DNA from: Cyanophora paradoxa CCMP329
Lineage: Eukaryota; Plantae; Glaucophyta
Length of the DNA stretch: 64,000 nt
Reading direction: 5' to 3'
Assembly: GCA_004431415.1 (NCBI GenBank)
Contig: QPMI01000602.1
Coordinates: forward strand, 124,001 to 188,000
A program made the position numbers and the translations under genes. The notes below the pieces were generated by a model. The model was not told the origin of the DNA and searched no databases. It saw only the letters and a list, made by a program, of their open reading frames with translations. Shown here in pieces: positions 15,310 to 58,190 of this stretch (within the stretch, counting starts at the first letter, position 1; each line of letters starts with the position of its first letter).

Positions 15310-16934
15310 CAGAATTGAAGCTTCAAGCTGGAAAAACAAACGTTGATTTCTTCCAAATGTGTGCTCGTGTCACCAACATCGCTCAAGTAGGGAACGAAGG
15401 ATTCTTGCACCTCCGCCTGACCCTCTGCGTCCGCCACTGTCTGGGCCTTTTCGTCCAGAGCCACTGTACATGTATGCAGTTACTCAGTGGGGCGTGACTC
15501 AGTTTTTCGGATGTCAAAAACACGCACAGATCCTGAAGACAGTGCCATTGTCTTTCCCACCGCACATTTGCCGATCATCGCCTGTGCATGGAAGCTTGCA
15601 GGTTCCAGCTTTTTCCCCATACCTGCCGCACATGAGTAGACAAGAGAAGGGGGAAAGAGAGGGGGGGGAAGGGGGGGGAGGGAGGGAAGGGGGGGGGGGG
15701 GGGTTGGAATCCTCACTTCGCTACTTGTGGCCAAGCTCTTGAAGTGGGCAGCGTTATGTCAGAGAAAGAACGACGAGAGAAACCGACGAGAGAAACCGAT
15801 CACTTTTCGGCGTAGCACTTGTTCCCCTCCCTCAAGGAGATGAAATCCCCTGCTACAAACCCCTTCTGCAAACCGAGAGGCGCTCAACGACCGGCAAAGG
15901 GGGCTCTCGGCAGCCTCAGGACCACGCACTGCTTTTGCATTCGCCTGTCCCGAGGGATTGGGGAGTAGGTGAGGGGCGTGCACCAGACGACGCAGAGGCT
16001 CGCATCCAACTGGACACAGCGGCGGCTTACCAAGCACTTCGAGATGGTCATGGTCTTCGATGTCTTCACGAGGGTGCGTGCGGCAGGGTCGGCAGGGGAG
16101 TCTCCAAAGCAGCCTGCACCCGGCTCGCGTCTGAGCGCGGGGCAGGGCGGGACAGGGCCGGCCGGGTGGAAAGCACCGATATATTGAGCTATAGGGGTCG
16201 TCTTGTACAAGGACAAATGCCCGAAGCCGCCGCACTTTGTCGTCTCTCCCGAGCACGTTGCGGGACACTTGTCCGCGGGGGCGCCGCCCGGGCTGTGCTT
16301 CAGGGCGAGCCGCAACTCGTTCTAGACGGGAGCAGCGGCGCGTGAGTATGAGCATGCGCGCCGTAGACGCGCGCAGCGGCGCGTGAGAACGATGGATCTG
16401 GGCCGTGCGTGGCAGCACCAGGCGCACCGTGCCCCAGCACTGCGTCCCGTACTGCCCTTGCTCCAGCCCGAACACGCGGAACTGTAGGAGCGTGCGTCAG
16501 TGCTGCGAGCTCAGTCTGCCCGCAGCGGAGGCACTGGGCTTACACCGTGGAACTTCGCTAGCTCGTTACACTTCCCAGAGTTCATCTGTGGCCCCTGGCC
16601 GAGATAGCTGCGACGGCAATGTAAGCGAAGGGCTTTTTGCGAGTACGATTTAGAGCGCTGCTAGGACTAGGGCGCCGAGGCTGGGGCGGACTAGGGGGCC
16701 GCGCGATCCTCCTTGAAGTCGGCGCTGCGAACAGCAGTCAGAGGTGACTGCGCATCTCACGTGACTAATGCAGGATCTGGCGCACTAGCATCCAAGATAC
16801 AGCTCCGGCGGAAGCGCTTTCGGCGATGCGAAGGCAGACGCGGCCGCCTGAGCTGCCGCTGCAACTGCCGTTGTCGAGGTAGCAGCTGATGTCACCGGTG
16901 CAACTGATGCAGTCGGTGCAACGGCCGCGGCCAT
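15310..16934 (-). CDS. WSC-domain (carbohydrate-binding) protein with two WSC repeats; both ends approximate
   Basis: Spliced: PPELYLGCY/ADFKEDRAAPY/YLGQGPQMNSGKCNELAKFH/FRVFGLEQGQYGTQCWG..KCPATCSGETTKCGGFGHLSLY; second repeat YIG/CFGDSP..MTISKC..CKLPCTGDDRQMCGGKDNGTVFRI; Ala/Thr/Ser-rich N-terminus. Confidence 0.78.
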
Positions 16935-17416
16935 GGTGCACAGCAGGCGCTAGCTGCGGCCGGCCGCCGACTGCCACACTGACAGCAGGCGCTGATGAAA
17001 GGTCCGGACGCGGTATCCCCCCCTCGGTGCACAGTGCACACTGCACAACTCCGCTGTCGGCGACCGGGCACGCCTGCGTGCTCTTGGCTTCTCCTAGCGA
17101 ACCGCTGATCGAGTTAGAGCGCCGCGGAAGCGCTGCAGCGAGTTGGGCGCGCCAGTTGGCGGCGCGTCGCCGACCAGCCACTTGAGCCACTGAGCCAGCC
17201 GGAGCGACCAGCGCCGCTTAGGTCAGCAGTGGCATCGCTGAGCTGAGCAATTCGAGCAAGCGAAACGCAACACGGACGTTTTTTTTGCTAAGCGTCCAGC
17301 CGCTGAGCGTCCGAATCAGGCAGCACTGTTTCGCGCCCAGTACGTTCGGCTGGCATAAGCGCTCGAAAGCAAGCCAAAGCTAGAGCGGACGGCGGTCGGC
17401 CTCCAGGCCGCTTGAG

Positions 17417-20385
17417 ATGGGAGGCGGCCGGTCGAAGCCGCGCCCGCCTCCGGTCTGCTGCCATGCGCTCGCTGCTCCGTCAATGCCCCCTCTGACGCAT
17501 ATCGCTGCCTGCGCTTCGGTTATCTTTGATGCAGCCGCCCCCAGTGCGTCGCCTCCCTCGACGCAACTCGCTCATATTGTTTGCTGAGGGCCGCTCGCAG
17601 GTCCACCCGAAGCCCATCCCTCCGCCCCCGCCCCCGCCCCCGCCGCCCCCTCCTCCACCTCCCCCGCGTACTCGGCCCGTGCCCCGCTCGCACGCCGCGC
17701 CGCTGAGCGCGACCTTCGCGCAGCGCCCCCGCCGCCCATCCTGATCAAGCCGCCCGATGGCCCTGCCGTCACGGAGACTGCGTCGGTCCCGCGGCAGCTC
17801 CCGAACGGCCGGGAGATTTACACAGCGGGAACGCCCCAGTTCTCCAGTGAGCACCGCCCCGCGCGCCCTCCGCGCACCCCGCAGGCCCCCGAATCCGACG
17901 GACGGCAGGGGGCGAGGTGAAAACGCTCATCCGGGACATATTCAAGGGGGATCTCGACCTGGCCAAGGTGCGGCGGGGCGGCGTCCCCGCCCTCGACCGG
18001 CGCTCTGACCCGGGGGGTGCAGGTGGAGCTGGGCAAGGACAACCCGAAGGTCCTCAGCATACCGCAGGCCGTCCGCTCGTGCGCCGTCCCGGCCGCTGCC
18101 GCGCCCGCCCGCGGCGGCGGCCGAGCCGGCGGTCTGCAGCTACATGAAGGCGCTGTGCCAGGGGTCGCCCCGCTTCGGCGGCGACAAGCTGCCCCTCAAG
18201 CTCGATTGCACGGTCAACTCCACCCCGCCCCGCCCCCCCCCCCGCCGGCCCTCGGCGAGGCGCGCGGCGTGACGCTCCGCCAGATGGCCGGCAACGACCT
18301 CGAGAACAGTCCTGACTTCGCCGTCACGCCGGGCGAGTTCAAGGTCCGGCCCCGGCCCCTCCCCACCCCGCCTACCGGCCGCACTGACGACACTCTCGCG
18401 CAGTATCTGAAGCTAGCACCCCCCAGTGCGGCCCCGCCTCCGCCGTGCACAAGCCCCGAGTACTGTATCTGAATGGGCCTGCGCTCTTTCCGGCAGGCGG
18501 GCGCCCCGGCCAGGTCGTGCACGCGTGTGCGTCTCCTATTTTTCCCCCTCCCACCCCCTCCCCCCCCTCCCTCCCCCCCTCCCCCCCTCATCCTCCCCCC
18601 TTCGACGCGCCCGGGCCGCAGCTGCGGAGAACGACAGCCCGCTGCCCCAGACGGAGACCATCTCGAAGTCGACCATCGTGAAGGAGTCGCGTGCGTGTAC
18701 CCCCGCCGCCCGCCGCCCGCTGCCGCACGACGCGCGCTATTTGCGCACATGCTGCAGATTCGTTCAAATCGTCGAAGAGGTGAGGCGGAGCCCGCGCCCG
18801 CGCCCGCGCTTCGAAAAGGGAGAGCCGACCCGCCCCCGCCGGCAGCATCGACACGGGCACGAAGACAGAGGCGGTGGCGGACGTGAAGGTTCGCGCCCCG
18901 CGGCGGCCGCCGCCCGCGGCCTGTACCCCTGAGCCCCGCGCCAGATCCCCGCGACCGGCGCCTCGGCCACCTCCCGGGCCTCCGCGTACTTCTCGGTACC
19001 CCGCCCGCCCGCCCGCCGGCCCGCCGGCCCGGTCTCGTGACGTCCCCGGCAGTTCAAGACGAGCGAGGACAAGGCGCAGACGGTCGAGACGACGTCGAAG
19101 CTGGAGCTCACCAAGGCGCGCGCCTCGCCGCCCAGGCGGCCACGCGGGGCTCACCCGGGGCGCGCAGGTCGTCAACCTTCCTCCCTACTCCAAGGCGGAC
19201 GTGGTGTGGACGGTGACGGAGGGGAACGTCGACCTCCCCTGGGAGCTCAAGGTCGACATCCAGGGGTACCGCGACACCGCGTCTCCGCGGCGGCCTCCTA
19301 GCTCACGCCGGGGCGCAGCAACTTCCGGTTCTTCACGTACAAGATGCCGACGGACCGCTTCCAGCTGAACTACTGCGGGCACGCGATGCGCGCTTACTTC
19401 GAGCAGGCCCGCCGACACCGCCGCTTGCCCCGCCCATCCCCCTCCCTCGCCCCCTTACCCTCCCCGTCATGCGAGCAGAAGCACTTCTACGCGGACGGCG
19501 GTGCGAACATGGCGGACGGGCTCCCCGACTACCTCCAGACGTGCGGCCTCAACTTCGTCACCATACCCGTCTGCGAGGCCCTGGTGCACCACGCCCGCCC
19601 CTCCTCTCCCCAGCACTTGAGCTCGCCTCATTCCGGCCGCCCCCCTCCGTCCCACCTCCCTCCCTCCCCCTCTCCAGGTCTGGTACAAGAAAGTGAAGCC
19701 GGAGGGCGCGGCGTCAGACTTCCGCAAGTGCACGTTCACCATCCCCGGGCGATACAAGCGCGCCCCAACGCTTTCCCCTCGAAACGAGGACGTGGGGCTG
19801 ACGGCCGCCGCGCAGAGGCGTGACGGCAACTCGCGTCAAGGCACAGGTCGAGGTGCGCTTCGCGCCCGACACGTGATTCGCCACCCCCCCCTCTCCCCCC
19901 TCCCTTCCACACACACACAACCCCCCCCTTCCCCCCCCCCTCTTCGCCGAGCGCGAGGGGCGACGCGGCGGTAGACGAAGCCGCTGGACGAGGAGCTGGA
20001 CGACTGGCAGGAGGCGCTGTACCGTGGCCAGAAGCTCGCCCCGCACCAGAGCATGCAGCTCCCCAAGCACGACAAGGCGCGCCGCCCGCGCCGCTTCCGC
20101 CTGCGCCGCTCACGCCGGCCGGGCCGCACAGCTCGTGGATATCGATGCTCATGTCGTCCCTTACGACGCGGCGGAGGCCGTCGAGCCCCACGCCGTATCT
20201 GACCCAAGGTCCGCGTCCGCTGTTGTGAAGAGCTCGCCTCAATCCGCCGCCCCTGCCCACGCGCGCCCCCCAGCGCCCTGGAGGACGCTTTCGCGGAGGG
20301 CGAGGCAGGGGCCTTCCTCACCGCCATCGCGGACCACTCGGCGATCCACATACACCTCGAGGACTACAGCCACCCAATCGCATGA
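17417..20385 (+). CDS. Aerolysin/ETX-MTX2-like beta-pore-forming protein A (MGGGRS start, poly-Pro)
   Basis: ~20 small exons: ENDSPLPQTETISKSTIVKES..IDTGTKTEAVADVK/IPATGASATSRASAYFS/FKTSEDKAQTVETTSKLELTK/VVNLPPYSKADVVWTVTEGNVDLPWELKV..IPGRYK/GVTATRVKAQVE. Confidence 0.72.
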
Positions 20386-21499
20386 CCCGTCGCGTCGCCT
20401 CTTTTTGAAAAATTCTTAAAGCGATGGTTGCATTGCTGCGGCCCAGCCTGGCAGAACCACGCTTCTCGTGCTGCCGGAGCACACCTCGAAGGCCCCACTT
20501 ACCTTCAGCGAAGAGCCCCTGATCATGAGCAAGGCCGTGCATTCCAAGGCTTCAGTGGTGCTCGAGTTCACCTGGTGTGGCCGCTAGGCCATGCATGATG
20601 CACTGCCAGGCTGCCAGGCTGCCGTGCTGGTGCCCGGCCGGTAAAGGACCCGGGAAATGATCTCCAGTAACTCACTGTCAGTCAGGGCCACCGTGATTAA
20701 TATTGAAGTCGGGCCGCCGGGCTCCGGATCCGAGGCTCATGATCAACCGGATCTCAGTGTGATTCAGTGTGCGACGGCGGAGGGGGGGGGGGGGGGGGGG
20801 GGGGGGTGCGTGGCCACGGGGGGCCCTAGCTATAGGCCTAGCTATAGGCGGGCCTCAAGCTCACGCCGTGACGTGCATTATATATATGTATCGGATATCA
20901 CTATACGTATATATACGTCTATAATTACGATCGCGATCATGTCACGTGCACGGGATCCGGGGGAGCACTATATATAGCCTAGTAGCTACCTGGCCGCCGA
21001 GCCGGCCACCTTCATCTGTTGCGCGAGGTGCACCTGCACTGCGGCAGCTGCAGATCTGGATGATGCGGTCGGCAGCCTGCCGCGGCCGGCCTGAACCGGA
21101 TCCGTCGGACTGCCGGACTCGGCTGGGCCCTCTGCAGCTGCTTTCCATTCCCCTCCGCTCTGCTTTCTGCCAGGGGCCCCACTGACTCACTGCCACTCGC
21201 TCCTCCCACCCGTCGGCACGGCGACCGCGCCCCCACCCGGAGTTCCCAACGGCGCTGAGTATGACAGCAGAGGGGGCAGCACCTCTGCAGGTCCGCCATG
21301 GCCAGGCGCACCGCATGCGCATGCAGTCCGAGCTCCGGCGGCCCGGAGCGGTCTGGAGCCCCAGAGCGGATCCTGGACCGCCAAGCAGCGCAGAATACCC
21401 ATAGTAATGTAGAACTGATGTATACCGGGCGAGATTCGGGGGCAATGTACAGGTGGCCTGGCGAGCCACTGGCGGGGCGGGACGCGTGGAAGACGGGGG

Positions 21500-22127
21500 C
21501 TAGCAAAGCCGCGGCATCTGTTGCGCTGGCGGATGAGCAAATGGAGCGATGAGGACGGAGCGCCCGGGAAGGCGCACCTTGATGCCAAGGTGCGCCTCCA
21601 TGACAGAATGAAGGCTCGGCGGCATCTGCTCAGCATTCGCGGGATCTGCGCGCGGCAAAGCGGGTGAGAACGACCGCATGACCGCAAACCAGCGCTCGTT
21701 GGCCCCGCACCGCCGAGGATGTCCTCGAATGTCAGGTCGTCGTCGACGCCAAGCATTGTGTCCAAGGCGACGAACGAGCTCTGCAAGCCTGGTAGCCGGT
21801 GGAACTGCGAGAGGATCTTCTGCTCCATCTGTTGCCTGAGCGGGAACTGCGCGCCGTAGACGTTCGACAGCATGGCCTGCTTCTGCTCATGGCAGAGGTT
21901 CCGCCACTGCGGGGCCGTCAGAGGCGCGAGGTCCCGCCCACGATGCCACGCCGCACCGTCTTCTGCACGACCGCAACGGGATGTACGGATGTGCATTCGG
22001 CCTTGACGGAGCTGAAGCCCTCGCGGAGAGGGTCCGCCAGGTAACCCGTCTTCAGCTGCGCGATCTGCTCCTGCGTTGGCTGTCAGGGCGAGCCGGGACA
22101 TCGGAGGCAGACGAGGCCGCGGACCAT
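21500..22127 (-). CDS. UMP1: Proteasome maturation factor UMP1/POMP
   Basis: DPLREGFSSVK..HPV, LSNVYGAQFPLRQQMEQKILSQFHRLPGLQSSFVALDTMLG.DDDLTFEDIL; first coding exon is the ATG alone. Confidence 0.88.
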
Positions 22128-22357
22128 TTGCCTTGCTCGGACTAGGTCGAAGTGCTGTACCCCGCTCAAACTTCTCCGACAGGGAGGTGCGTGCGCAAAT
22201 CTGTTCATTTGATCATTAGCCCTCCGATCGAGCATCGTCAATGGCGACTTGATTCGCAAGCTGCAGAGCCCCGGGCACCGAGGAGCGACAAAGAGGGAGT
22301 ACAGCGAAATCCTGAAGAGCCACGTGGGGGGTACGCTCCGCACTTCTGTTCGGTAAA

Positions 22358-24425
22358 ATGTCGGCGGCTTTCGCGGTCACCGCGCTCCCGGTTGCGGCCA
22401 AGGCGGTTGCGGGTGCCTCGAGCACCGTCTGCACGGCCTCGCCGAAGGTAACCGCCGCCCCGGACCGGCCGCGCGCATCTCCTCGCTGAATTATTATCGG
22501 CTAGGTCTCGCGGTCGCAGCTCCAGGCCAAGCAGTTCGTTGGCCTTAAGGCCACCAATGGCCTGTTCAAGAGCGCCAACCCGAACGCGACCCTGTTCGAG
22601 GCGGCTGCCCCGGCGAACGACACCCGCATGCGCATGTCGGCGAGCAGCACTGCCACCGGGCCGATCGAGAAGTCGCTGGCCGACAAGTTCAACGACCTGC
22701 GTGCGTTGCGCACTAGATCGTGATCGCATAGATGATCGCCGATCTTGTCGGCCACGGCTGATCGCGGATGCTTCCGCCCTCCCTCGCAGCCCAGGGCGGC
22801 AAGATCATGGCCGAGTACGTCTGGATCGACGGCACTGGCGAGAACACTCGGTCCAAGACCCGGGTAATCACCGCGCAGTCGTCGATCCGACATATCTCCG
22901 TCTCTTACGCAGCCGCGCGCGCCCAGACCCTGACGTCCATCCCCAAGTCGCCCGCGGATCTCCCCCTCTGGAACTTCGGTGCGCCGCAGACCCAGAGCTG
23001 CGGGCTAGATGCATCTTAAGGTCGGATCGGAGCCCGAGGGGCGATAGATCGCTACGCAACCGCTGTTTGTCGTTCAGTTTAGCAGGAGGCCGTGCAAGAA
23101 GACCGAACCCGCTAGCTCGGGCGGCGTCGGTGGATCGGATCTCACGCGCGGCTCGCAGATGGCTCCAGCACTGGCCAGGCCCCCGGCAACGACTCTGAGG
23201 TCATCCTCAAGCCTCAGGCCATCTACCGCGACCCGTTCCGCCGTGGCGACAACATCATTGTGCGCGCTGCTTCGTGCAAGCAGTTGCACACCGCCCCCGC
23301 TCACGCGTTTTTGTGCACAGGTCCTCTGCGACTGCTACAGTGCGCGACGCCGCGTCTGAGCGGGCCCGGCCGAGCTCCTTTCTCACGTAGCGCCGCTCGC
23401 CCGCAGAGCCCAACGGCGAGCCGATCGACAACAACACCCGCTTCAACGCCGAGAAGGCCATGAACGCCGCCAAGGATCTGAAGCCGTGGTTCGGCATTGA
23501 GCAGGAGTACACCCTGTTCTCGGTCCGCGCCTGCTCGAGCGCTCCTTTCCCCGCCCGGGCTCACGGTCGGCGCTGGGGAGCAGAAGTCGAAGTGGCCGCT
23601 CGGCTGGCCGGAGGGCGGCTACCCCGGCCCCCAGGGCCCGTACTACTGCGGCGCTGGCTACGATAAGGTTTTCGGCCGTGAGGTCGCGGACGCGCACTAC
23701 AAGGCCCGCCCCGCTCTCTCTCTCTTCCTTTCCTTTCCTTTCCGCGCGGTCGCCTGACTTGGACGCGCGCAGGCGTGCCTGTACGCCGGCGTGAACATCT
23801 CCGGTGTCAACGCCGAGGTCATGCCCGGCCAGTGGGAGTTCCAGGTGGGCCCCTGCGAGGGCATCGCCGGCGGCGACCAGATCTGGATCGCCCGCTACCT
23901 CATGGAGCGCGTCTGCGAGGAGATCGGCGTGATCGTCTCGTTCGACCCGAAGCCGATGGAGGGCGACTGGAACGGCGCCGGCTGCCACACCAACTACTCC
24001 ACCGAGCCGATGCGTAACGAGGGCGGCTGGGAGATCATCAAGCAGGCCCTCGAGAAGCTCGAGAAGAAGCACATGGAGCACATCGCCGTCTACGGCCGCG
24101 GCAACGAGCGCCGCCTCACCGGCAAGCACGAGACCGCGCCGATCACCCAGTTCTCCTGGGGCGTCGCCAACCGCGGCTGTGCGCAATCTCGCCCCCCTTC
24201 TCCCGCCCCTCTCTGAGTCTACGAGCGCGCAGGCTCCATCCGCATCCCGCGGAGCACCGAGGCGGAGGGCAAGGGCTACCTCGAGGACCGCCGCCCGGCC
24301 TCCAACATGGACCCGTACATCGTCACTGCCAAGCTCGTCGAGACCACCTGCCGTGCGCCCCATTCAAATCTTCCCAGCAGCTGAAGTGACGCACGCCTCA
24401 CCGTCTCTTCAACGCCGCAGTGTAA
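22358..24425 (+). CDS. GLN: Glutamine synthetase type II with plastid transit peptide
   Basis: MSAAFAV..; [75 protein letters not shown]. Confidence 0.96.
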
Positions 24426-25096
24426 AGGCTCGGCCCCTCTTCGGACCCTGTACCAACATTTGCTTTGCAATTTTGCTTACGAAGTCCGCGGCCAGCTTCA
24501 AGGCTTAGGTCCAGGTCGCACATGTCCGTCAGTTCGCATGTTCGCAGTTCCAGGGCTAGGGCGGCCCAGCGCCCAGGCTTTTTACTGTTGTTTCAACTTG
24601 CAAGTGTACAATTTTCGTGGCGGACGCTGTCGGGCGCTTCGTGGCAAATTAATTTTTCTTGATTTCATCACCTTTACCTGGCTCAGCGGCTCAGTCCCGG
24701 GAGCCTCAGGGCGTAGGAGATCTAGAGCATGCCATGATGCATCTGCCATGCCCCGCCATTTCATCATTGCATGATCAGTCAGCGTCCGACGGTTGATATT
24801 ATTACTAAGTTATCATGGTCATGGCATGCGTGTTTATCATGATCATAGTATACGTACGAGCTGGTGATCCGACGATCGGCCCGTCGGCGCACGCAGCCTG
24901 GCTCCGGCCGCCGGCGCCGGGCCGCGCCGGGCATGCGCAGCCGCCGGCCGCTGACTCTGAGGCTCAGTGAGCTCTGCAACTTGGCAACGCGTACGGCCGC
25001 GGCCGCCGCATTGTAGCATTGTACATGTGTACGTACGTGTACGTATACGTGCACGAGCCGTGTTGCTAGGGCCCTTTACTAGTTATCGCGAGCTCT

Positions 25097-25745
25097 AGGG
25101 CTTTTTGCGATTACGATTTAGAGCGCTGCTAGGACTAGCCTAGTAGGGCGCCGAGGCTGGGGCGGACTAGGGGGCCGCGCGATCCGATGATCTTCCTTGA
25201 AGTCGGCGCTGCGAACAGCAGTCAGATCTGAAGGTGACTGCGCATCTCACGTGACTAATGCAGGATCTGGCGCACTAGCATCCAAGATACAGCTCCGGCG
25301 GAAGCGCTTTCGGCGATGCGAAGGCAGACGCGGCCGCCTGAGCTGCCGCTGCAACTGCCGTTGTCGAGGTAGCAGCTGATGTCACCGGTGCAACTGATGC
25401 AGCCGGTGCAACGGCCGCGGCCATTGTGCACAGCAGGCGCTGCGGCCGGCCGCCGACTGCCACACAGGCCCACACTGACAGCAGGCGCTGATGAAAGGTC
25501 CGGACGCGGTATCCCCCCCTCGGTGCACACTGCACAACTCCGCTCTCGGCGACCGGGCACGCCTGCGCGCTCTTGGCTTCTCCTAGCGAACCGCTGATCG
25601 AGTTAGAGCTCCGCGGAAGCGCTGCAGCGAGTTGGGCGGGCCAGTTGGCGGCGCCTCGAACCCCAGCCCAGCTGTGGGAGCCGGCCAGAGCAATAGGCGT
25701 TGTCTGATCTGACAATTGCTGAGCTGGGCGATCCGAGCAAGCGGC
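25097..25745 (-). pseudogene. Duplicated 5' part and upstream region of the WSC gene (copy of ~16629-17270)
   Basis: Near-identical to 16629-17165; truncated at 25097; +8 insertion at 25185-25192 frameshifts the ADFKEDR exon. Confidence 0.8.
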
Positions 25746-25847
25746 TGCACGTCACGCTGGAGCGGCGGGGACATACTCCATCTAGCGCGTCAAGCTAGCG
25801 ATTGGAAGCGCCGCGCGTCCGACACTCAAGCTAAATAACCACCACGG

Positions 25848-28800
25848 ATGGGTGGAGGAAGATCCCGGCATCGCCGGCCGTCGCCGCCGCCGCGGCCGGC
25901 AGCGCCATGGAGGCCACCGCCGCCGAAGCCCCCGCCGCCGCCGCCTCCGCCGCCCAAGCCCCTCCCCCCACGTACGATGACCTTCTCCCATCGCCTTCTG
26001 CGTCTCTTTACACGGCGCACTTGTCGCAGCTCCGCCGCGGCCTGCCGTAGTGCCGCCGCCGCCTCAGCAGCCCGACCAGACTGTCAGAGTCGAAGCGATT
26101 GACCCTCGCCTGTCGGTTCCAGGTCAAGAACTGTATGCGAATGGCCCTCTCCTGTGCGTATGCTGCTTCGCTGCACTCGGCCGCCGCTGATCATCGCGTC
26201 GGGCTGCGGCAGATTCGGCAAGAAGGAGGCAAGCGCCATGCCGCACGGGCTTGCGATGAAGCGGCTCACGCTTCCCCTGTTCGCAGGTGGTCTCCATGAT
26301 CAAGGATATCTTGAAGTCCCAGATCGACATGGATAAAAGTGAGACGCAGCTGCGAGGCCGCCGCGCCTCGCTCCGAGGCTTGGAGCAGCCCTGAAGCGCC
26401 CCTCGCAGTCAAGGCCCCCACGAGCGACAAGATCATGAGCATACCCGAGACAGTACAGCGATACACGCGAGGGCTGTGCCAGGTGCGTGTCGAGCACGGA
26501 CCCGCGAGAGACCGCGCTCCGAGGAGAACTCATTGGTGCGGGGCGCGGGGTGCGCAGGGGAACGAGCGCGTGGGCGGGACAGGCGGAACTGTCGTGAAGG
26601 CGGGGACGAAGTGCCAGGTGAATGGCCCTCCGCCGCGCGCCCGGCGTGGCGGCCTGACGGGCGCCCAGGTGTGGGGCAACGACCTGAAGGACTCGGCGGA
26701 CTTCAAGGTGCGCGCCGGCCAGTGGCCTCCACGGCCCCCACGCGCCTTCCAGCTCCCGACCCGCCTCTCCGCAGGTCGAGATCGACGACTTCCGATACGG
26801 GAAGCTGCGGAAGGACCCCGGTCGCGCCGCGCCGCCCCCCGGCCCTTGCGTTCTGGAACCGCCTCGCTCACGCCGGCCGGCCGCAGAAGTCCGCCCCTCG
26901 TCGACGGTCACGGCCGGTGCGCGGCGCCCTCGTTTTTCACGCGGGCCGCGGGGCGCGAGACGCTGCGCCCCGCAGACTCGGACAACGACTCGCCCGAGTG
27001 GCAAGTCGAGAAGGTGGGGGCGCCTCTGCGCCCTCCTCGGGGCCCGCTCTGGCCGACGCGCCGCCCCGCCAGGTCGCGCGCACGGTGACGGTCCGGGAGA
27101 AGTCCCACTTCAAGATCTCCTCGGGGTGCAGGCGGGGCAGCGATGGGCGAGGGTCCGTCGGGGCGACGGTCTCACGCGGGGCGCAGCATCCAGGCGGGGG
27201 CGCAGCTCTCCGTCAGCGCCGGCGTGTGCAACGACATCGCGTGCGCCAAGGCCGGCACCTCCTTCAACCCGGGGGTGCGCCGCCGGCCCCGCAGAGGGGC
27301 CCCGCCCCGCCCGGACCCATGCCCGCCCTTATCCCCGTGCCGCCCAGGTCGACACCACGAAGGAGGTAGCAGATTGACGTGGCCGAAGATCGGAATCGAC
27401 ACTAACGGGCTCGGCGCAGGACACGAACAAGAAGGACACGGAGACGACCCTGCACCTCGAGAAGACCGTTAACGTGCCCCCCTTCGGCCACGCAGGCGAG
27501 CCGCGCCCCCCATCCCTGTAGCAGTAGCCCCTTGCCGGTGTCAGACGGGGCCTCCAGACGTCGTGTGGACGATCTTCGAGAGGGAGGTGGACATCCCGTG
27601 GGAGGCCAAGGCCACCATCTCCGGGTTCGCGCCCGCCCTCCTCGCTGTCGTTTTGCGCCCGCCCTCCTCGCTGTCGTCGTGACACCGAGCCAGAAACTTC
27701 AACATGTACTACTGGGACGCCCCCCAGGGGCGCTTCGACCAGAACGCATGCGCCCAGGCGCGCCCGCCCTCCCCCGCCGCCGTGCGCTGGGGCGCGGGCG
27801 GTGCTGAGCATCGGGGGCGGGGCGGCAGATCATCCGGGCGTTCGTGGAACAGAAGGTGGTGCACGGGGAGGAGTACCGGGGGATGCCGTCCTACCTGGAG
27901 AGCTGCGGCCTGCACATCGTCAAGATCCCCGTCTGCGAGGCCCTCATCTGGTCCAAGAAGATCCGCCCCGAGAACGCGGAGAAGGACCAGAGCAAGTGCT
28001 GGTACACGATCGACGGCTCCTACGAGGGCGTCAAGGCCTCCGACTGGAAGTCGCAGGTCCAGGCGAGCAGCGCCTGCTCTCCTCTCCGCCGCCCCCGCTC
28101 AGCTGAGCGCCCCGGGCCTCCCCGCAGACGCGGCCGATCTCGTCGAAGATGTCGTGGTGGCAGGCAGCCCGTTACCACGGCACCGGCCTCGAGGTGCCGC
28201 CCCTGCCCCTGCCCCCGCCCTCCGTCCGGCGCGTCCAGCCCGTCTCATGTTGCGGCGCAGGACCTCGAGCCGACAGAAGAGTCCCTCGAGCGCATGGCTC
28301 GTCCCTTGCAGCTTCTCGCCGCCTCTCTCTTTCTTCCCTTGACCCGCCACTGCAGCGCGAGTACGTGAAGGGCAAGCCCTTCGGCCCGCGGGCCGACGCG
28401 AGAAAGACGACGAAGCAGGCGAGCAGTACCGGGTCCCATCCCCCCCGTGCTTCTCGAGATCTCAGTTGCGCCCGCAGATACTGCAGGAGAAGGAGGCCCG
28501 CCGGGCGGCCCGCAAGTCCGAGCGTGAGAAGCACGAGAAGACAAAGGTCCGTTTCCCGCCGCGCTCCCCACATTCATCGCGCGGTACCCCGCGAGCCCCG
28601 CCCCCGCAGCACCTGCGGACGAAGGAGAAGTGGGCCCACCGCGTGGACCACGAGGGCCAGCAGGCCGAGGTGCCCCACCGCCGCGCTCTCTCGCGCGTCT
28701 TCGCCACCGACTGACTGCACCCTTCGAAGCCCAATGCTGAAGCGAACCTCTCCTTGAGCTCTGAACAACAGGAAGTGCACCCATACAGTCCTGCGGGGGC

Positions 28801-29033
28801 CGACGGGACAAGCGGCGCGGTCCGCCAGGGTGCCCTTCCCCCTCACATCGCGTTCCCCAACGCCGAGCGCGCAGGGGACGCTGGGCTCGGAGGCCGCATT
28901 CTTGGGGGAGCTTGTCGAGGACGACGCCGGCGGCGCCGCCATGTCGATGCTCGCTGCCGGCGATGCGGGGATCGATACTCCAGACGCGGTCGCCTTCGCC
29001 CACGAATCTCACTGCGCCGTGCACTTGTGCTGA
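25848..29033 (+). CDS. Aerolysin/ETX-MTX2-like beta-pore-forming protein B (MGGGRS start, poly-Pro)
   Basis: DNDSPEWQVEK/VARTVTVREKSHFKISSG/IQAGAQLSVSAG..DTETTLHLEKTVNVPPFGHA/DVVWTIFEGEVDIPWEAKATISG..SYLESCGLHIVKIPVCEAL..TIDGSYEGVKAS; colinear with protein A. Confidence 0.72.
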
Positions 29034-29265
29034 CGCTTTAGTACCCGTGACAGTGTGTTCGCCCCTACTCATCCCGCCCTGTGCATCCTGAAATTGAATC
29101 CTGGTATCTAACGACTTCGGGCCTATCATGGCAGGGGGTTGAAAGGCGCCATGATCACTGCACGTGGAGAACAAAAATGGATGGGGACGAGGCTCAGGGA
29201 GGGAGGGGCGGCGGAGACGGGGGAGGGGCCTGCAGGGGAAGCGGCCGGAGAGCTTGGGGGACTGA

Positions 29266-30419
29266 CTACCAGCGGGGTTGGCCGACGAAGTCCAGGGACT
29301 CCTTCGGGGCGAAGAAGACGACACGCTGCCACTCGGGCGAGTCGGTGTCCTCCATGCGCTTCATGAGCTCCTCGAACGCGCCGACCTGACCGCGCGGGGA
29401 TTAGCTCCCGACCGAAAGAAGGAAAGAAAGGGCAGGCGGCGGGCGTGCCTCGATGCGCGGCTGCGGGGACATTGCGGGGTTGCCGCGGCGCATCTCCGCC
29501 CAGGCCGCCTCGAGGTCCTCCTTCGTGAAGAAGAGGGGGATGAACTGGCGAGTGTCGTTGCCCTGGCGCATTGTGAGACCCTCCGCCTGGTAGATGGGCG
29601 TCCCGTTGAAGTGCGTGACCTTCGCGAAGAGACCTGTCAGCACGAGAAGATCAGGAGGGAAGCGGGGCGGCGAACCTTGCGGCCCTGAGTCTTGAGGACG
29701 TCGACGGCGTTCTTGATCTGCTTTGCAACGGGCACGTAGCGAGCCTGGATGCCGGCATCCGAGCCGGCATCCACAGCGGCGCCGCTCTTCGCCGCAGCCT
29801 CGGCGTCCTTCGTCAGCTTGTACGCCTTGTCAAGACCAACGGTCATAACCTTGAGGTTCTTGCCGGGCTGGCCAGCGCGAGCCTTGGGGAGCGCAGCCAT
29901 GGCATCCTTGCGACTGAAGTAGAAGACGACAAAGCGGCCCTTCTCCTCGCCCCAGTTCGAGGCCACGATCGGCTTATTGCTCGCGTCGACAATCGTGAAG
30001 ACCGGAACCTCGCTGAGCTGCTTAGTGAGAGTCGCACGATCGATAGCCTCGGCGCTTTCGGACTGAGTCATAACGCCGAACGCAGCGATGCCGGCGACAC
30101 CGGCCACCGCGATCGCGGCGCCCGCAAGCTTGCTCCGAGCCTCGCTGGTCTCCTCCCCGCTGACGTCCTCCTCCTTGAGAGACATGGAGATGGTCGGAAC
30201 GCTCACGGGCCGGAAAACGGGGCGGGAGTCAGCCGCAGCCCTCACTCCGAAGAAATCCGAACGCTTGCTCGCGCCGAACAGACGCGAGCTGGCGGGCTGC
30301 CGCGCCGGCACGGACTCCGCAGAGCGCTGGCGTGCTGGCGCCGCGCATACAGCGGATGTGATCAGCTGCACGCCCGCCGCCGCGACGGCACAGGGCACGG
30401 TAGCTGCGAACGAGGCCAT
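29266..30419 (-). CDS. TIC22: Tic22-family plastid import chaperone with bipartite presequence
   Basis: MASFAA..; LSEVPVFTIVD, FYFSRKDA, VGLDKAYKL, FNGTPIYQAEGL, IPLFFTKEDL. Confidence 0.88.
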
Positions 30420-30537
30420 TGGGGTGTAAATCCGCTGCCCTGGGTACACTGCAAGGAGCGCACTGCGTACCCCCTCCGCGCAGCAGCCGCTGAGCAGCGC
30501 GCGGCCAGCGCGGATGAAGGCGCGCAAGCAATCGGCT

Positions 30538-33500
30538 ATGGATGCCATCGAAGAGGGCGCGACCAAGTTCGCGGGCCAGCTAGAGCGTGGCGCGGGCCAG
30601 ATGCTTGCCCACGTCGAAGAGGGAGCAACCAAGTTCGCGGGCCAGCTAGAGCGTGGGGCCGGCCAGATGCTTGCCCACGTAGGCGCTCTTCTGGTCGACC
30701 GGGAGAAAGTAGAGCCGATGGTGATGAAGCTCAGTCCGGTACGCCCGCCCGCTTATGCGTGGCCTGCGGCACCACCGACGCGCCCGCAGTACGTTCCGGA
30801 GTACTGCTTGAGACGATTCGCTACCGGAAAGCCTATGTGCGTACGCCGCGTTCGTCCGGAAGCCCGCGTTGACTTATCAACGACCTCAGGCGGGAGATGC
30901 CCGAACATGGGCAGTTGTTCGGAGGTGCAGATGCTTGAACGCTCGCTTGCTTGCGCAAGGGTGTACCGCGGCGCTAAACCGCGCCTTCGTCCGCAGCGAT
31001 TCTCTTCACTGACATCAGTGGGTTCACGCCCCTCTGCGAAAAGTTCGGGAAAATGGGCGCCGCTGGAGCTGAGCGTGTCCGCGACCACCTGAGTGCCTAC
31101 TTCGGCCGCCTTATTCCTATCATCGTGGGCCACGGAGGCGGTCCGCGTCCCAACTGAACCGACCGCGTTCGCCGCCCGCTGATGTCCGACGGTCCTCACA
31201 TGCGTAGATGTTATCAAGTTTGCTGGAGGTGCCGCGATGGAGGCCACTGCGCGTGTGCTAGCTGACACGCTTACCCAGACGCCCTCATTTCTCTCTTCTG
31301 GGGCAACGACGAGAGCGACCTGGCGCACTGCACGCTTAGTGCCACAGCCTGTGCATTGCAAGCTCTTTCTCAGCTATCAACATACGACGCGGACGGTGAG
31401 CCGGATCGAGTCATGGTATGCTGCCTTCGAGGCGAGCCCGGCGCAGGCGTTACCCTTCAAATGCACATCGGTGTCGGCGCTGGAAAGCTAAGCTATCTGT
31501 GCGTTGCTTTGCTCTTTGTCGCTGACCTAAAATGCTGACGAAGCGCGACTATCCAGCTACGTGGGCAGCACGAACAGGCGAGAGTTCCTTATTGCCGGCG
31601 ACGCGCTGACGCAGATCGCTTCTGCCGAGGCGGACGCGAAGTCCGCGCAAGATCCCCTCCTCTTCATCGAGAAGCCGGCCTCACCCCCTGCAGGTCGGGC
31701 GAGGTGTGCCTATCTCCGGAGGCGTGGCGACTCGTGCGCGGCCGCTGCCAGATGCGGCCCGTGTCGGGCTCGCAGAACATGATCGTCACGTCGATCATGG
31801 GCCCGCTGCCGGACTCGATCCGGTTCATACCGCGGGCGGAGGACATCCCAACCCCGATCGCCGCGGAGATGGAGCCCTGGTGGGCTCGGTAAGCTCGCAC
31901 GGCCCCCGCGCACCCGGCTGCTTTGCTATCTGAGTATAGCTGGGGTTGCCCCCCCTGGGTGCACAGGTACGCGGCCTGCTGGGGCTGCCGCACCTCCCGA
32001 GAGCCTCCCATCGACTCTGGCTTCATCCATTACGCGCGTCAGCTCTCGTGCGCCTTCCCGAGGCCTCCCGCCGCCCCCTCGCCGTTCGTCCTTCGAGGCC
32101 GCCGGGCGCAGGACGGACACGCTGGTGCACGTGCAAAGGGAGCTCGAGCGGTACGTCCCCTCGACAGTCCTCGTCAAGATGCGCACGGGGCAGGTGGGCC
32201 CGCCCCCGGCCCCCGCCCGCTGGCCGGCAGCGCGCGCGGGGCCTCAGGCACGTCTTGGGCGCAGTTCAAGTTCCTTGCCGAGCTGCGCGCCATCTCCGTC
32301 GTCTTCGTTTCCGTGCTCGGCCTCGACTACGACTCTGACGACGGTGATCCGCCCCGCCCCCGCCCCCGGCTGCGGCTCACACGGGGCGGTCGGCCTGGCA
32401 GGGCTGCGCCTCGCCAACTCGGCGGTGGCGGCGATGATCGAGGCGCTGGAGCAGTACGGCGGCTCCCTCCGCCAGTTCATCTCCGACGACAAGGGCTCCG
32501 GTGCGCGCGTGCCGGCGCGCCCGAGCGTTCGCAGCTGACCGCTGAGGTTTTCCCGGCAGTTCTCATCGGGATCTGGGGCCTGCCGCATGCGACGTACGAG
32601 GACAATCCGACGCGGGCGACGCTCTCCGCAATAGAAATCGGGCAGCGCCTCAAGAAGTTCTCCCTCGGCTGCTCCATCGGCGTGACGAGTGGGCGGGCCT
32701 TCTGTGGCACTGTCGGGAGCCCCATGCGGGTGCGCGGGCCGCCCGCGCCCTCGACCCAACCCAGGGGGGGCGCGCCGAGCCGAGCCGAGCCGGGGGCCGG
32801 GCCGCCAGATGGAGTACGCGGTCGTGGGGGACGTCGTGAACCTGTCTGCGCGCCTCATGTCCAACGCCAAGGGCGAGATGGGCAACATCCTCATCGACGA
32901 GGGTGCGCGCCGGCCCGGCCCGCCGAACTCGAATCCCCCCGCGCGCGCCGACGCCGCAGGGGGCGCGCAGCGACGTACACGGCGGCGAGCAGCAGCGTGA
33001 CGTGCAACCCGAAGGGCTCGATCAAGGTGAAGGGGAAGGAGCTGCCAATCAAAGTCTTCAACCCGCTCTTCAAGTACGCCGTCGGGCGTGGCGCCAGCAA
33101 CTCGGCCAGCGCCGCGAACCAGCGCAAGACTGCCCTCGTCGGGCGCAGCATAGAGGTCCCCTACCCCTCCCCGTCTGGGCGCCGGGGCCGGCCCTGACAT
33201 CCGGATGAAACAGGTGCAGCTGCTGAGCGAGGCGGCGAGCCGGCTGGTGCGGGAGCGGACGCACTTCCAGGGCCCGCGCGTGATCGTGGTGGAGGGCGAG
33301 TCGGGGGTGGGGAAGACGCGGCTGGTGCAGGAGGCGGTCGGGCTCGGCTCGGCGCACGGCAAGGAGGGCCGCTTCGTCTTCGACGCCTCGGCGACGGAGA
33401 TGGAGGCCGGCCAGCCGCTCGCCGTCTGGCGCCGCCTCTACTCCGCCATCGCCAACGAGCTCATGACCTCGCACGGCGGCGCCGCCGCCGCCGAGGCCGA

Positions 33501-35439
33501 GGCCGGGGCCGGGCCCGCCAAGGCCGGCTCCGCCAGCGGCGCCGCCGGCTCCCTCAAGAACCTCCAGTTCGTCTCCCAGATCAAGGCGAGCCGCCCAGCC
33601 GTCCCGCGCCCCACACCACCACCTCCGCCCCCCGCCTCTGATGCGTGCCGGTGGGGCGGGGCTGCAGGTGCGGACGCAGGGATGGATGGTGAACGTGAAG
33701 CGGCAGCGGTTCATGCAGCGGGTGGAGCAGCTGGGCGGGCGGGAGCTCGCGGAGCGCGTCTCGCTGCTGAACGGGCTGGTGCCCCTCGAGCTGCCCGAGT
33801 CCGAGGTGACGAAGAAGATGGCGGCGCGGAAGAGGCCCGAGGAGCTGCGGAGGCTGCTGGCGGACCTCACCGTCGCCCTCGCCGCGTACCTGCCGGTGAC
33901 GCTCATCATCGACGACGCGCACTGGATGGACGCTGAGAGCTGGGAGGTCCTCGAGGCCGTCATGAAGGCCTCCAAGAGCGTCCTCCTCGTCCTCGCCATG
34001 CGCGCCTGGAACGCCACGGCGCAGCGCAGCGTGCCCCCGCAGCTGCAGCGGTTCCTGCAGTCGGCGGGGCGGGGGGCGGACGGGGAGGCGCGGCGCGTGG
34101 CGCTGGCGCCGCTGGCGCGGGAGGACGTGCTGGCGATGATCGAGGACGCGCTGGCCGTCCGCGCCCTGCCGGAGACCTTCGCCTCGATGATCCTGCAGCG
34201 CGCCCAGGGCAACGCCTACTTCTCCCTCGAGCTCGCCTACGCGGCGCGCGACAAGGGCATCATCGAGATCCGCGACGCGCGCGCGACGATGTCCGCCTCG
34301 GCGGAGACCCTCTCCAACCTGGACGTGATCCTCCCGGCGACGCTGCAGGGGGTCATCTCCTCCCGCATCGACGGGCTGCCCCCCGGCCACCAGCTCGTCC
34401 TCAAGGTCGCCGCCTGCATCGGGCCCCAGTTCGAGTACGAGATCCTCCGCACCGTCTACCCCGTCGAGGCGGACAAGCCGGAGCTCCCGACCGTGATCGA
34501 GGCGCTCGAGGAGCGGGCCTTCATCGCGCGCGCCGCCAGCCCGCCCGAGGTCGCGCCGAGCCCCAAGACCCTCGTCGCCTCCATGCGCACGAAGCAGAGC
34601 AAGCTCGAAGGCGTCTCCTTCACGTTCTGCTCGACGCTCATCCGCGAGATCTGCTACGGGCAGCTCTCGCTCTCCAACCGGCGCGACCTCCACGCGGCGA
34701 TCGCCAGCGCGTACCGCGCCCTTTGCGAGAACGACGTGACCGCCGCCCGCCGCGCGGCGCTCTCCTTCCACGAGGCCAAGGCGGCGGACGAGATGCAGGG
34801 CACGCCGCCGGCCGAGACCAAGGAGAGGAGGCGGCCGGAGGGGCCGCGGCAGCCAGAGACGCCGCGGAGGGTGGCCGAGGTGGAGGAGGCACTGGCCGGG
34901 GGCGCGGCGCCGGCGGCGGGCGGGGCGGGCGGGGCGCAGACGAGGCGGCGGTCGACGCGGCCGGGCTCGGACCCGAGCGTCTGGCGCATGCCCCGTAGCG
35001 ACGAGCTGGTGTACGTGGAGAACCCGTACGGCTCGGGGCCTTCCGCCCTCCCGCCGGACCCGGCCCCGCTCCCCCCGCCGCCGCAGGCCCCGTATGCGCA
35101 CCCCGCATCGGTGCCCTCCTACGCTGGGGTCAGGCGGCCTCCGATCTCTATGCGGGGGATCCACGCGCCGGCGGAGGAGGGCCCGGACTCGCACCGGGGG
35201 CGGCGCCCCAGCGACCCCCACGCGGCGGACACGGTCGTCCGGCAGCGACCAGCGTCGGCACGCGATCCCACGCACTCGGGCAGCAGTACGAACCTCACCG
35301 CTAGCGGGGTGAGCGATGGCCCTCCCCTCCCCCTTGGGCAACTGCCTCCTCCCGCTCGCTCTGCTGACAGGATCGTTCGCTGCTGCAGAGTTGGGCCCCT
35401 CCTTCACGTATCTTCCGACCCCACGACTCCCTGCGATGA
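30538..35439 (+). CDS. Soluble adenylate-cyclase-like (ADCY10-type) protein: two class III cyclase domains + STAND/AAA ATPase
   Basis: ILFTDISGFTPL, VIKFAG/DAL, MHIGVGAG, FISDDKG, SIGVTSGRAFCG.VGS, EYAVVGDVVNLSARLM; Walker A GESGVGKT; Walker B LIIDDAHWMD; AQGNAYF. Confidence 0.9.
30548..30679 (+). repeat. 66-bp (22-aa) in-frame tandem duplication
   Basis: EEGATKFAGQLERGAGQMLAHV twice, differing only at synonymous sites. Confidence 0.9.
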
Positions 35440-35528
35440 GAGAGGGGCAGCTGCTTCGGGCATGGGCTGTGTTTTTCGGAGGCTTTGCTGTGTTTCCTCG
35501 AAGCTAAGCTTTTTGTAGTTTCTTTTAA

Positions 35529-36132: not shown

Positions 36133-37971
36133 ATGGCCGCGGATGCCCAAGAGCCGGCGACGCCGAGCAAGCGGCGGCGGCCCGGTAACGACGAGACGGG
36201 ACAGTCTCCGGCGCTTTTTCTGGAAACAGATGCGGCGCCGCCGCCGTTTGCACCCAGCTCTCGGGTGCGCCGTCTGGCGGCGGCGCGCAGATTCGGCCTC
36301 ACTTGCGGAACGCAGGGGTTCCAATTCCTTCCCACATGCACGTCGAGCGATCCTATGGAGGTCATTGAAGTGGGTGCGCGGTCCTCGCAACCTGAGCGTG
36401 AGTTGGAGCTCAACGCCGCCGCGCCGCGCAGATGCGGGAGGCACGATCTTTACTTCAACTCGTGGCACATTGTGCAGGTGAGAACGCCGGGTACTTCTCC
36501 CCGCCCCGTCTGCCCCCCTGAACTGGCGGCAGCGTGCCGGGGTCCCGGCTTGCGGCGGTGGTCGCAGGCAAGGTCGCGAGCCCGCGGCATAACTCGAGAA
36601 TCTTTCTGGACGTCGATCCCGGTCACTTCCGGATAGTGGTGCGCCCGTGCAGCGGTTTCGCTTCGCGCGTGGCTGACCAGTTTCCCCGCCACGCCCCGCA
36701 CCTTCGCCCTGCAGCTCAAGTGCGCGCCGTCCCCTCGTCAGATTCATGCCGCCGTCGCTGACTGGCCCGCAGCTGGCTCCGATACCCGTGCCCGCTGGAC
36801 AAGTGGGAGTTGGAGCCGGACCGCTCGGTGCTCCGCACCTTCGCGGCGCTGGGCCTGAGCCTGGAGGGCTACGGCATGGCGTCGTCGGCGCCGCGGCCGC
36901 TCACGGCGCGGCAGTCGGCCTCGTCGGCGAGCCCCTCGACGCCCTCGCCGGAGCCGGCCCTCGACGCCACCGTCTGCGTGATCGGCGGGCGCAACCGCGA
37001 GAACATCTTCGCCTCGATCGAGATGTACAAGGAGAGTGCCGGCTTCTGGAAGAACGCGGCGCCGACGCTCGCGGTGAGTCGCGAGGGCCACGCCTCGGTC
37101 GCCGTCGGGCCCAAGGTCTACACGCTGTGCGGGAGCCGCCGGATGCGCGGCTCCTCCTCCCCCGACGCCTTCCTCTCCTCCGTCGAGTGCTACGACTGCA
37201 GCTCCCACCAGTGGCTCTCCGTCCCGCCCCTCGCCACGCCCCGCTACGGCCTCGCCGCCGCCGCCCTCGGCACCACGATCTTTGCGATGGGCGGCTGGAA
37301 CGGGCGCGAGGTCACTGACAGCGTGGAGATCTTCGACGAGGGCTCGCAGTCGTGGCGCGCGGGGCCCTCCCTGCTCGAGCCCTCGGCTGGCCTGGGCGCC
37401 GTCGCCCTCGGCGGGCGCGTCTGGGCAGCCGGCGGGGGCCACCGGGGGCGCCCGACGTCGGACACGGTGCAGTTCTTCGACCCGGAGAAGGCGAAGTGGC
37501 TGGGCGGGGCGCCGATGCAGGTGCCGCGCGCCTCGCACGGGCTGGTGGCGCACGAGAACTGCCTCTACTCCTTCGGGGGCCTCTCGGGGGACGCCGAGTC
37601 GGCCGTCACCGAGTTTCTCGACGTGCGCGTCGGCCAGTGGCAGTTCCTCGGCCGCCTCGCCCTCGCCCGCCGCTGCCTCCAGGTCCCCGCCCCCGCCCGT
37701 TGCACTCGCCTCGGCCCTCCCCTCACCGCCCCTCCCCCGCAGGGCGCCGTCATCGCCGGCCGCCTCATGGCCATCGCCGGCTACGATGGGCAGTCGTGCG
37801 TGCCGCCACGGCCGCCCCGCGCGCCCGCCGCGCCGGCGCCGATCCGGCCGGCCGCCCCGCAGGTACCTGGACTGCTGCGAGCTCTTCGACGTGCCAGCGG
37901 GCAAGTGGCGCAAGGGCGCCCCCCTCTGCGACGCCCGCGGCGCCTTCTCCGCCGTCACCCTCGTCGCCTAG
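36133..37971 (+). CDS. Kelch beta-propeller protein with probable KCTD-type BTB-like N-terminal domain
   Basis: About six kelch repeats (VCVIGG, IFAMGGWNG, VWAAGG, LYSFGG, LMAIAGYDG); IFLDVDPGHFRIV..WLRY. Confidence 0.82.
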
Positions 37972-38402
37972 TGCAACCCACGTCGCCTAGTGTGCTTAGT
38001 TGTACCCTTCCCAAACGTTACCAGCTTAGTTTGTGGCATAATTTCAAGCATTTCCAAATAAATTAAAACCATTTCGAAACTGCTGAACCGCCGGGCCGAG
38101 TACCTGCCCCAGCTGCAGCACCTTCGCTGCGAGACTCATGATCACACGCGGCGCAATTGACCACATTCGTATATATAGCTGTATACTCAGTGACTGAACA
38201 AAGGTGTCTATGCACTGAACAAAATGTACATCCATGACCAGGATTCCCGGAGCCCCTCGCCGGAATTTGGAGCGGCTGGTCCGTCGGCGGTGTGTGCGCG
38301 CGCTGTTGCACCGGGGCGCGGTGTTGAGGACGGCTGGCCGGCCCGTCCCGCGGGCCCGGGGCACGAGGTGCCGGCCGGCCCGGCCATCCGGCACCTGGGG
38401 CC

Positions 38403-39727: not shown

Positions 39728-39766
<39 letters not shown>

Positions 39767-48733: not shown

Positions 48734-48738
48734 ACTCC

Positions 48739-51874: not shown

Positions 51875-51879
51875 ACTCC

Positions 51880-57898: not shown

Positions 57899-58190
57899 TG
57901 TCAAGCAACACCCGGAGCTACCGGGACAACCGCCCCCGCTTGCTCGCCCTCGAGGCGCTGATAGACGCTTCCAGGCTAGCGACGGCACGAGGTTTCAGAC
58001 GCTTTTGACCAACAGCTGCTTTCGCGCCCGGGGGGCACTGCACTGGGGCCTCGGCGCTCAGCAAAAATATGCGTGGTAGTGCTATACCCTGGACCGGGGC
58101 AGTGTACGTGTACCCGTTCGTCTAGGAAGTATCTCGCAGAAAGTGCGGTCCTCCTCCAGCTGCGCGCGCGCCCCGCTGACGCGCGCGCAG

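Follow-up and report, generated by a model that had tools for sequence, protein, structure and literature searches.

Two spliced genes, A and B, in a 64,000-nucleotide stretch of the Cyanophora paradoxa CCMP329 genome (contig QPMI01000602.1, positions 124,001 to 188,000; hereafter the window, whose own numbering is used throughout) encode divergent paralogues from a family of at least five proteins. All five share a conserved head that lacks a signal peptide, and the core is predicted to adopt the aerolysin/ETX-MTX2 fold with an amphipathic insertion hairpin. The reading that we favour, with a probability of about 0.45, is that these proteins are latent pore-formers tethered through myristate to those faces of the alga's own membranes that look onto the cytosol, with defence as their likely task. 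Aerolysin-type proteins are normally secreted and find their targets with a lectin or receptor domain. An acylation motif kept across five deep paralogues would imply a targeting logic unlike this one, and the family is put forward here as a candidate defence or death effector in glaucophytes.

Two spliced genes, a family of at least five and a leaderless head

A preliminary description of this DNA had placed two micro-exon-rich paralogues at the positions given for A and B in Table 1, and these positions proved right. Reading in three frames and fixing of the splice sites gave spliced models free of internal stops, with introns of 51–122 nucleotides (nt), 35 GT and 10 GC donors, and a median exon length of 63–64 nt, four exons in A and three in B being 30 nt or shorter. 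Transcript contigs from five public runs (three studies), presumed to be RNA, were aligned to the window, and transcription was judged from the skipping of introns in them; by this measure both genes are transcribed in all five runs, and the proposed splicing holds. For A, the 11 splice joints listed all agree with the model (10 in four of four runs, one in three of four), as do the length of the spliced 3' part (487 nt in a transcript contig) and the coordinates of the contig pieces around an intron within a skipped repeat. Exons 2 and 3 lie within a skipped poly-proline repeat, and no contig bridges exons 1 and 4. For B, two runs each supply a single contig that extends from 25580 to past the stop, with 1462 nt of spliced sequence between 25971 and 28874. 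The acceptor used in the model gives these 1462 nt, where another acceptor would give 1420; the 14 residues by which the two differ are independently present in the public protein g20237.t1.

The position of the start codons bears directly on the head. Upstream of the ATG of A, the transcribed stretch from 17091 holds in-frame stops and no ATG. The start of B is fixed by an in-frame stop closely upstream of its ATG within transcribed sequence, which has no upstream ATG and is continuous in a contig from 25580 to 25971. The public protein g20237.t1, recovered with the longest exon of B, is filed under Cyanophora paradoxa, in keeping with the primary-alga host that the preliminary description had guessed. 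It equals B from residue 30 of g20237.t1 onward and opens with MEATA, in another frame. This public model (25848–26122) starts at a downstream ATG and needs an extra 73-nt intron, so that 1389 nt are predicted where the transcripts have 1462; the MGGGRSR start of B is favoured for this reason. We therefore provide a corrected N-terminus for g20237.t1, whose public start hides the motif of B.

A HMMER search of 1.84 billion representatives returned 10 matches at E<=0.001, namely B itself, three at E<=1e-73 and six weak ones, the latter being tick and unnamed ETX/MTX2-like proteins. The three strong matches are paralogues from Cyanophora, of which g17525 and g17527 share a contig and g10282 has a different one, and the family as counted here comprises A, B and these three. 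No database record of the protein of A was found in protein searches, and no third paralogue was found in the 64-kb window. Word-index protein searches gave nothing outside the family (family members being 1 of 3, 1 of 2850 and 3 of 7992 scored candidates), and locus scans confirmed no relatives among 68 pattern matches in metagenome contigs, 68 in viral contigs and 51 in prokaryote genome contigs.

Over the core, A and B are identical in 137 of 358 alignment columns (38%), with an alignment score of 638 against a maximum of 74 in 300 shuffles, and they have seven intron positions in common, of 17 in A and 16 in B. Local-alignment identity among the five paralogues is 31–43%, and the closest paralogue of A is g17525 (49% over the core). 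In a tree with only five distant rows, from which P0007, P0008 and near-copies were left out and which has no true root, the five paralogues lie on one side of a branch supported at 100/100, and A groups with g17525 (97/95), for which reason a recent tandem duplication is rejected as the origin of A and B. The placement of B relative to g17527 is not resolved in this tree; these two alone carry an extra cysteine pair at the hairpin tip. On contig tig00021038, the A-like g17525 and the B-like g17527 (P0005 and P0003) are two gene numbers apart, which hints at two loci where an A-type gene has a B-type gene as its partner, the second locus being judged by gene numbers.

The head itself is shared by the whole family. 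All five paralogues start with MGGG(R/S)S, carry three to five basic residues (histidine included) within positions 2–15 and have 24–33 prolines in their first 60 residues, so that a start akin to the MGGGRS(K/R) noted in the preliminary description, like the poly-proline run, extends beyond A and B. Each also fits the MGxxxS consensus, with Gly2 and no proline at position 7, the pattern being that of PROSITE PS00008. Of the 1658 ATGs in the window, exactly two open a MGGGxS peptide, and these are the starts of A and B. The five codons after the ATG all differ silently between the two genes, which indicates that selection, and not a recent copying event, has kept the head peptide the same, although the five paralogues reflect common ancestry and do not amount to five independent observations of it. 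Hydropathy windows revealed no hydrophobic leader or signal-peptide-like stretch among the 40 N-terminal residues in any paralogue (11-residue maxima from -1.11 to 0.69) and no transmembrane-like window in the five proteins (19-residue maximum 1.39). The absence of a signal peptide thus stands, and no alternative N-terminus with one was found. MGX3S is named as a myristoylation motif (PMC6362269), and anchoring by myristate is commonly paired with a polybasic patch (PMC4972946). Judged from the sequence, Gly2 of the A/B family proteins is likely to be myristoylated.

Table 1. Coordinates in the window of genes A and B and of their predicted parts
Feature	Position	Strand	Remarks
Gene A, ETX/MTX2-aerolysin-like	17417..20385	+	ATG 17417, TGA 20385; 23 exons; 493 residues
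Gene B, ETX/MTX2-aerolysin-like	25848..29033	+	ATG 25848, TGA 29033; 24 exons; 581 residues
MGGGRSK start of A	17417..17437	+	predicted N-myristoylation motif, then basic residues
MGGGRSR start of B	25848..25868	+	predicted N-myristoylation motif, then basic residues
Poly-proline linker of A	17438..17740	+	exons 1–4; 33 Pro in first 60 residues; exons 2–3 inferred
Poly-proline linker of B	25869..26070	+	30 Pro in first 60 residues
Aerolysin/ETX-type core of A	18056..19852	+	predicted six-Cys head domain and beta-strand pore module; limits approximate; from alignment to B and paralogues
Aerolysin/ETX-type core of B	26438..28062	+	Pfam PF01117; model and fold matches; limits approximate
Predicted amphipathic insertion hairpin of A	18758..19058	+	exons 12–15; alternation p=0.015
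Predicted amphipathic insertion hairpin of B	27106..27353	+	extra Cys pair at tip; alternation p=0.011; low confidence in model
C-terminal extension of A	19975..20385	+	conserved W..A..G helix, then acidic low-complexity tail; candidate inhibitory propeptide
C-terminal extension of B	28128..29033	+	conserved helix followed by charged helix and acidic disordered tail; candidate inhibitory propeptide
Upstream block of A	16629..17169	.	promoter region, part of 5' untranslated region, 5' end of divergent gene
Upstream block of B	25097..25658	.	near-identical copy, truncated divergent gene

The predicted fold and its known relatives

Pfam scans covered the four database paralogues, B among them. 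B scores 25 against PF01117 (aerolysin; cut-off 24.3) and g17525 scores 30.9 against PF03318 (ETX/MTX2; cut-off 22), and no lectin family matched any of the four. The best match in a PDB sequence search was Dln1 (E 0.0012), and the ETX/MTX2 sequence motifs named in the preliminary description are all present in both A and B. For the public protein of B, an AlphaFold model built from 22 rows has a mean predicted local distance difference test (pLDDT) score of 60 and a predicted template modelling score of 0.46, with the termini and the hairpin under pLDDT 50. Its top structural match is 2d42, the 26-kDa crystal protein of B. thuringiensis (Foldseek E 8e-12; Z 14.2, root-mean-square deviation (rmsd) 4.2, 242 of 249 residues), followed by Cry23Aa (4rhz, Z 12.3), Cry51Aa (4pkm, Z 12.0), C. 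perfringens epsilon toxin (1uyj, Z 9.8, rmsd 5.0, 228 aligned) and proaerolysin (1pre, Z 7.2, rmsd 6.4, 222 aligned). Because the alignment for B contained ETX-like rows, a control model of g17525 was made from Cyanophora rows only (pLDDT 55), and it gave the same ETX/MTX2-aerolysin matches (E 1e-10). One Atlas search scored 0.97 to aerolysin clusters; a second returned only unnamed bacterial clusters, at 0.91–0.93. The A/B family is accordingly predicted to have the aerolysin/ETX-MTX2 fold that the preliminary description expected.

The models and the fold matches have in common a core of five strands in which a variable loop comes between strands 4 and 5, and in the two models an inserted loop, helical and Cys-rich, has the long strands on either side. 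Outside the core there are poly-proline, short helices or a low-confidence tail. In the putative insertion loop that separates strands 2 and 3, whose limits were set by hand, polar and apolar residues alternate more strictly than expected from 5000 shuffles in all five paralogues (p 0.0002–0.046), and the alternation is kept regardless of very low sequence conservation in the hairpin. A prediction of a three-copy complex scored 0.00; the alignment was unused and the case lies outside calibration, so that this is evidence neither way.

The modelled core thus aligns with the ETX/MTX2 (Mpp) toxins 2d42, 4rhz, 4pkm and 1uyj over nearly the whole chain (Z 9.8–14.2). With these toxins the Cyanophora proteins also share a single lobe without lectin fusion, an amphipathic loop, an extension past the last strand and Ser/Thr-rich strands (20–31% Ser plus Thr). 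By contrast, identity is only 11–16%, the genes are eukaryotic and intron-rich, and the proteins combine the MGxxxS-basic-poly-proline head and missing signal peptide with six invariant cysteines in the head domain and an acidic tail of 100–200 residues. Proaerolysin of Aeromonas is likewise similar in that B exceeds the PF01117 cut-off, that the core aligns to residues 94–424 and that a C-terminal extension stands in place of the activation peptide, whereas the Cyanophora proteins lack its N-terminal lectin lobe and secretion signal. A lineage expansion is also seen among leaderless proteins of eukaryotes with an aerolysin domain (amaranthin-aerolysins in plants, Dln1/natterin-like proteins in fish, lamprey immune protein, choanoflagellate SaroL-1), but these are targeted by lectin domains, in whose place Cyanophora has the predicted acylation motif.

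Parts of this architecture have precedents. The amaranthin-aerolysins of plants have no leader and reside in the cytoplasm (PMC5554364), and an aerolysin-like lipoprotein of Bacteroides carries an N-terminal lipid anchor on an aerolysin domain (PMC3110756). The latter, however, is bacterial, exported through a signal peptide and lipidated on cysteine, whereas the Cyanophora proteins are predicted to receive myristate on glycine co-translationally in the cytosol. The preliminary description's statement that most family members are secreted toxins needs qualifying, in that a missing signal peptide is nothing unusual in this superfamily: about 40% of 338 members, many of which were fragments, had one (PMC3110756). 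Since leaderless plant members and a lipid-anchored Bacteroides member are known, neither the fold, nor its presence in eukaryotes, nor the missing leader is new. No description of such a defence or death effector in glaucophytes was found, though tables in surveys of aerolysin transfer could list these proteins; the conserved myristoyl-type, lectin-free architecture is the part not found described in the literature searched.

Where and how the proteins may act

In the mechanism that we favour, Gly2 would be acylated by a cytosolic N-myristoyltransferase, and myristate together with the basic patch would bind anionic membrane, standing in for the lectin or receptor domain that other members carry, with the poly-proline tract as a spacer for the core. 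The C-terminal extension would block ring formation until cleaved or displaced, like the C-terminal peptide of proaerolysin; rings would then insert their hairpins as a beta-barrel pore and permeabilise the membrane, so that the infected cell would be killed or the compartment of an intruder breached. Gasdermins and MLKL-type death executors would offer an analogy in the proposed logic only (a latent intracellular pore-former, membrane binding with the help of a lipid, loss of a C-terminal part that inhibits), since their folds are unrelated and no such match is among the fold-search matches listed. The alignments to aerolysin and epsilon toxin stop where the C-terminal extension starts, and aerolysin is activated by removal of a C-terminal peptide (PMC3110756). 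A stronger version, in which an aerolysin-type protein would be the glaucophyte's own executor of cell death or cell-autonomous immunity, myristoyl-tethered, tail-inhibited and deployed as co-regulated A-type and B-type pairs, seems to us unlikely; if true, it would mean a gasdermin-like logic on an unrelated beta-barrel fold.

Several observations weigh against these tethered pore-formers. An N-terminal glycine is required for myristoylation yet does not predict it (PMC7373427). The link between exon 1 of A and the body of the gene comes from splice sites and frame and is unbridged by contigs. Just two of the four database paralogues pass a Pfam cut-off, the other two being without a match, and the C-terminal tails of the paralogues show no conserved site for cleavage. 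The neighbouring genes that could be identified (Ump1, glutamine synthetase and Tic22) are housekeeping genes. Finally, the crystal protein 2d42 is titled non-toxic, and for this reason the fold does not show lysis. The proteins might instead be non-lytic, acting as a membrane-tethered scaffold or a small regulated channel whose poly-proline recruits profilin, WW or SH3 partners. The non-toxic title, the transcription in every run and the long poly-proline tracts of all five paralogues would suit such a role, but alternation kept in five of five hairpins despite low conservation is expected of a barrel-forming loop (PMC3110756), and we consider a non-lytic function very unlikely.

The cysteines pose a further difficulty for cytosolic pore-formers. 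All six core cysteines are invariant, compared with 56 of 336 columns overall; they belong to the head domain and are not spaced as CxxC. The Cys-containing insert noted in the preliminary description is present in both A and B; it belongs to this invariant set and sits uneasily with the purely cytosolic life envisaged there. The core tryptophans are also invariant (4 of 4), so that burial could explain part of the conservation of the cysteines. Even so, the pattern suggests disulfides, which would fit an oxidising space better than the cytosol, and such a site is not obviously reached by a leaderless, cytosolically acylated protein. The invariant cysteines thereby leave room for three other explanations: the proteins may act once the cell is lysed or ingested, they may be imported into an envelope space in the manner of Mic19, or they may leave the cell unconventionally in the manner of MIC7.

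In the first, the proteins would be a stored anti-grazer or allelopathic toxin, myristoylated and harmless in the cell and active after lysis or ingestion, when disulfides would form, foreign proteases would cut the tail, and the lipid would act as an unspecific hook into the consumer's membranes. Besides the cysteines, the closeness of the fold to the Bacillus Mpp/Cry23/Cry51 crystal protoxins speaks for this idea, as do the divergent hairpins of the five paralogues, which would suit varied targets, and the link of leaderless plant members to insect defence (PMC3110756). Against it, the Pfam scans revealed no lectin or other receptor-binding fusion, and a co-translational lipid anchor would hold the protein on the producer's own membranes. 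A stored toxin is doubtful in our view, but a serious contender.

The second explanation starts from yeast Mic19, in which a MGX3S myristoyl motif and a cysteine motif lead to the mitochondrial intermembrane space (PMC6362269). By analogy, myristate-aided import into the oxidising intermembrane space of the mitochondrion or cyanelle would let disulfides form in proteins that permeabilise or channel the envelope, and would reconcile the lipid motif, the missing leader and the six cysteines. Yet no twin CX3C, CX9C or CX10C pattern was found among these cysteines, and their large size and richness in beta structure set the proteins apart from what this pathway typically imports, which makes an envelope pore improbable.

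Unconventional export, the third, would turn the head into a sorting signal, myristoylated or not, and the poly-proline tract into the glycosylated extracellular stalk of a toxin that is secreted or sits at the surface. Algal wall proteins commonly have proline-rich stalks, the cysteines would be at home outside the cell, and the upstream region of the genes is shared with a divergent gene that we take to be WSC-like, a usually extracellular type, although Pfam was negative. A precedent is Toxoplasma MIC7, which is myristoylated, lacks a signal peptide and enters the secretory path (PMC7373427), but MIC7 has a transmembrane segment and the A/B family has none; we regard export of this kind as a long shot. 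Tethered, latent pore-formers on cytosolic membrane faces remain the reading that we prefer.

Surroundings of the two genes

The two genes are preceded by copies of a 540-bp upstream block that differ by 8 substitutions in 530 aligned pairs and 6 indels, despite which their coding regions show no nucleotide match. B appears to have recently received the upstream region of A, through promoter capture or conversion, and such a recent transfer would make the two genes co-regulated. The 5' end of the divergent gene in the block continues only on the A side. Positions 17091 and 25580 were rejected as a common transcription start, since both contigs begin 30 nt ahead of the point at which the copies first differ, the mark of a branch in the assembly.

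The divergent gene is small (15800–16934, minus strand), lies 482 bp from the ATG of A and encodes an Ala/Thr-rich head and two Cys motifs, presumably WSC-like carbohydrate-binding repeats. Searches of fragments of it found no WSC match in four short unspliced stretches with Pfam, nor any match for two in the PDB. Its product may be a partner for the putative pore-formers, which lack a lectin domain of their own.

Between A and B stand the Ump1 proteasome maturation factor gene (21500–22240, minus) and, head to head with it, a glutamine synthetase gene (22359–24430, plus) whose product has a likely plastid transit peptide. Downstream, a Tic22-like gene (29100–30750, minus) converges on B, and the transcript contigs of the two run together. 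No Rfam match lies within 15500–30000. Further along, 31893–35518 (plus) gives a weak AAA_16 ATPase match after a region with what we take to be adenylyl-cyclase-like motifs, the whole resembling soluble adenylyl cyclase. Three tandem units of about 2.9–3.1 kb each, 97–99% identical, form a lower-GC stretch at 45861–54733. Other matches in the window are to an RSB motif (148–864), Kelch repeats (36762–38063), a Cys/Met pyridoxal-phosphate enzyme (39622–40602), WD40 (56167–56898) and EF-Ts (58080–59006).

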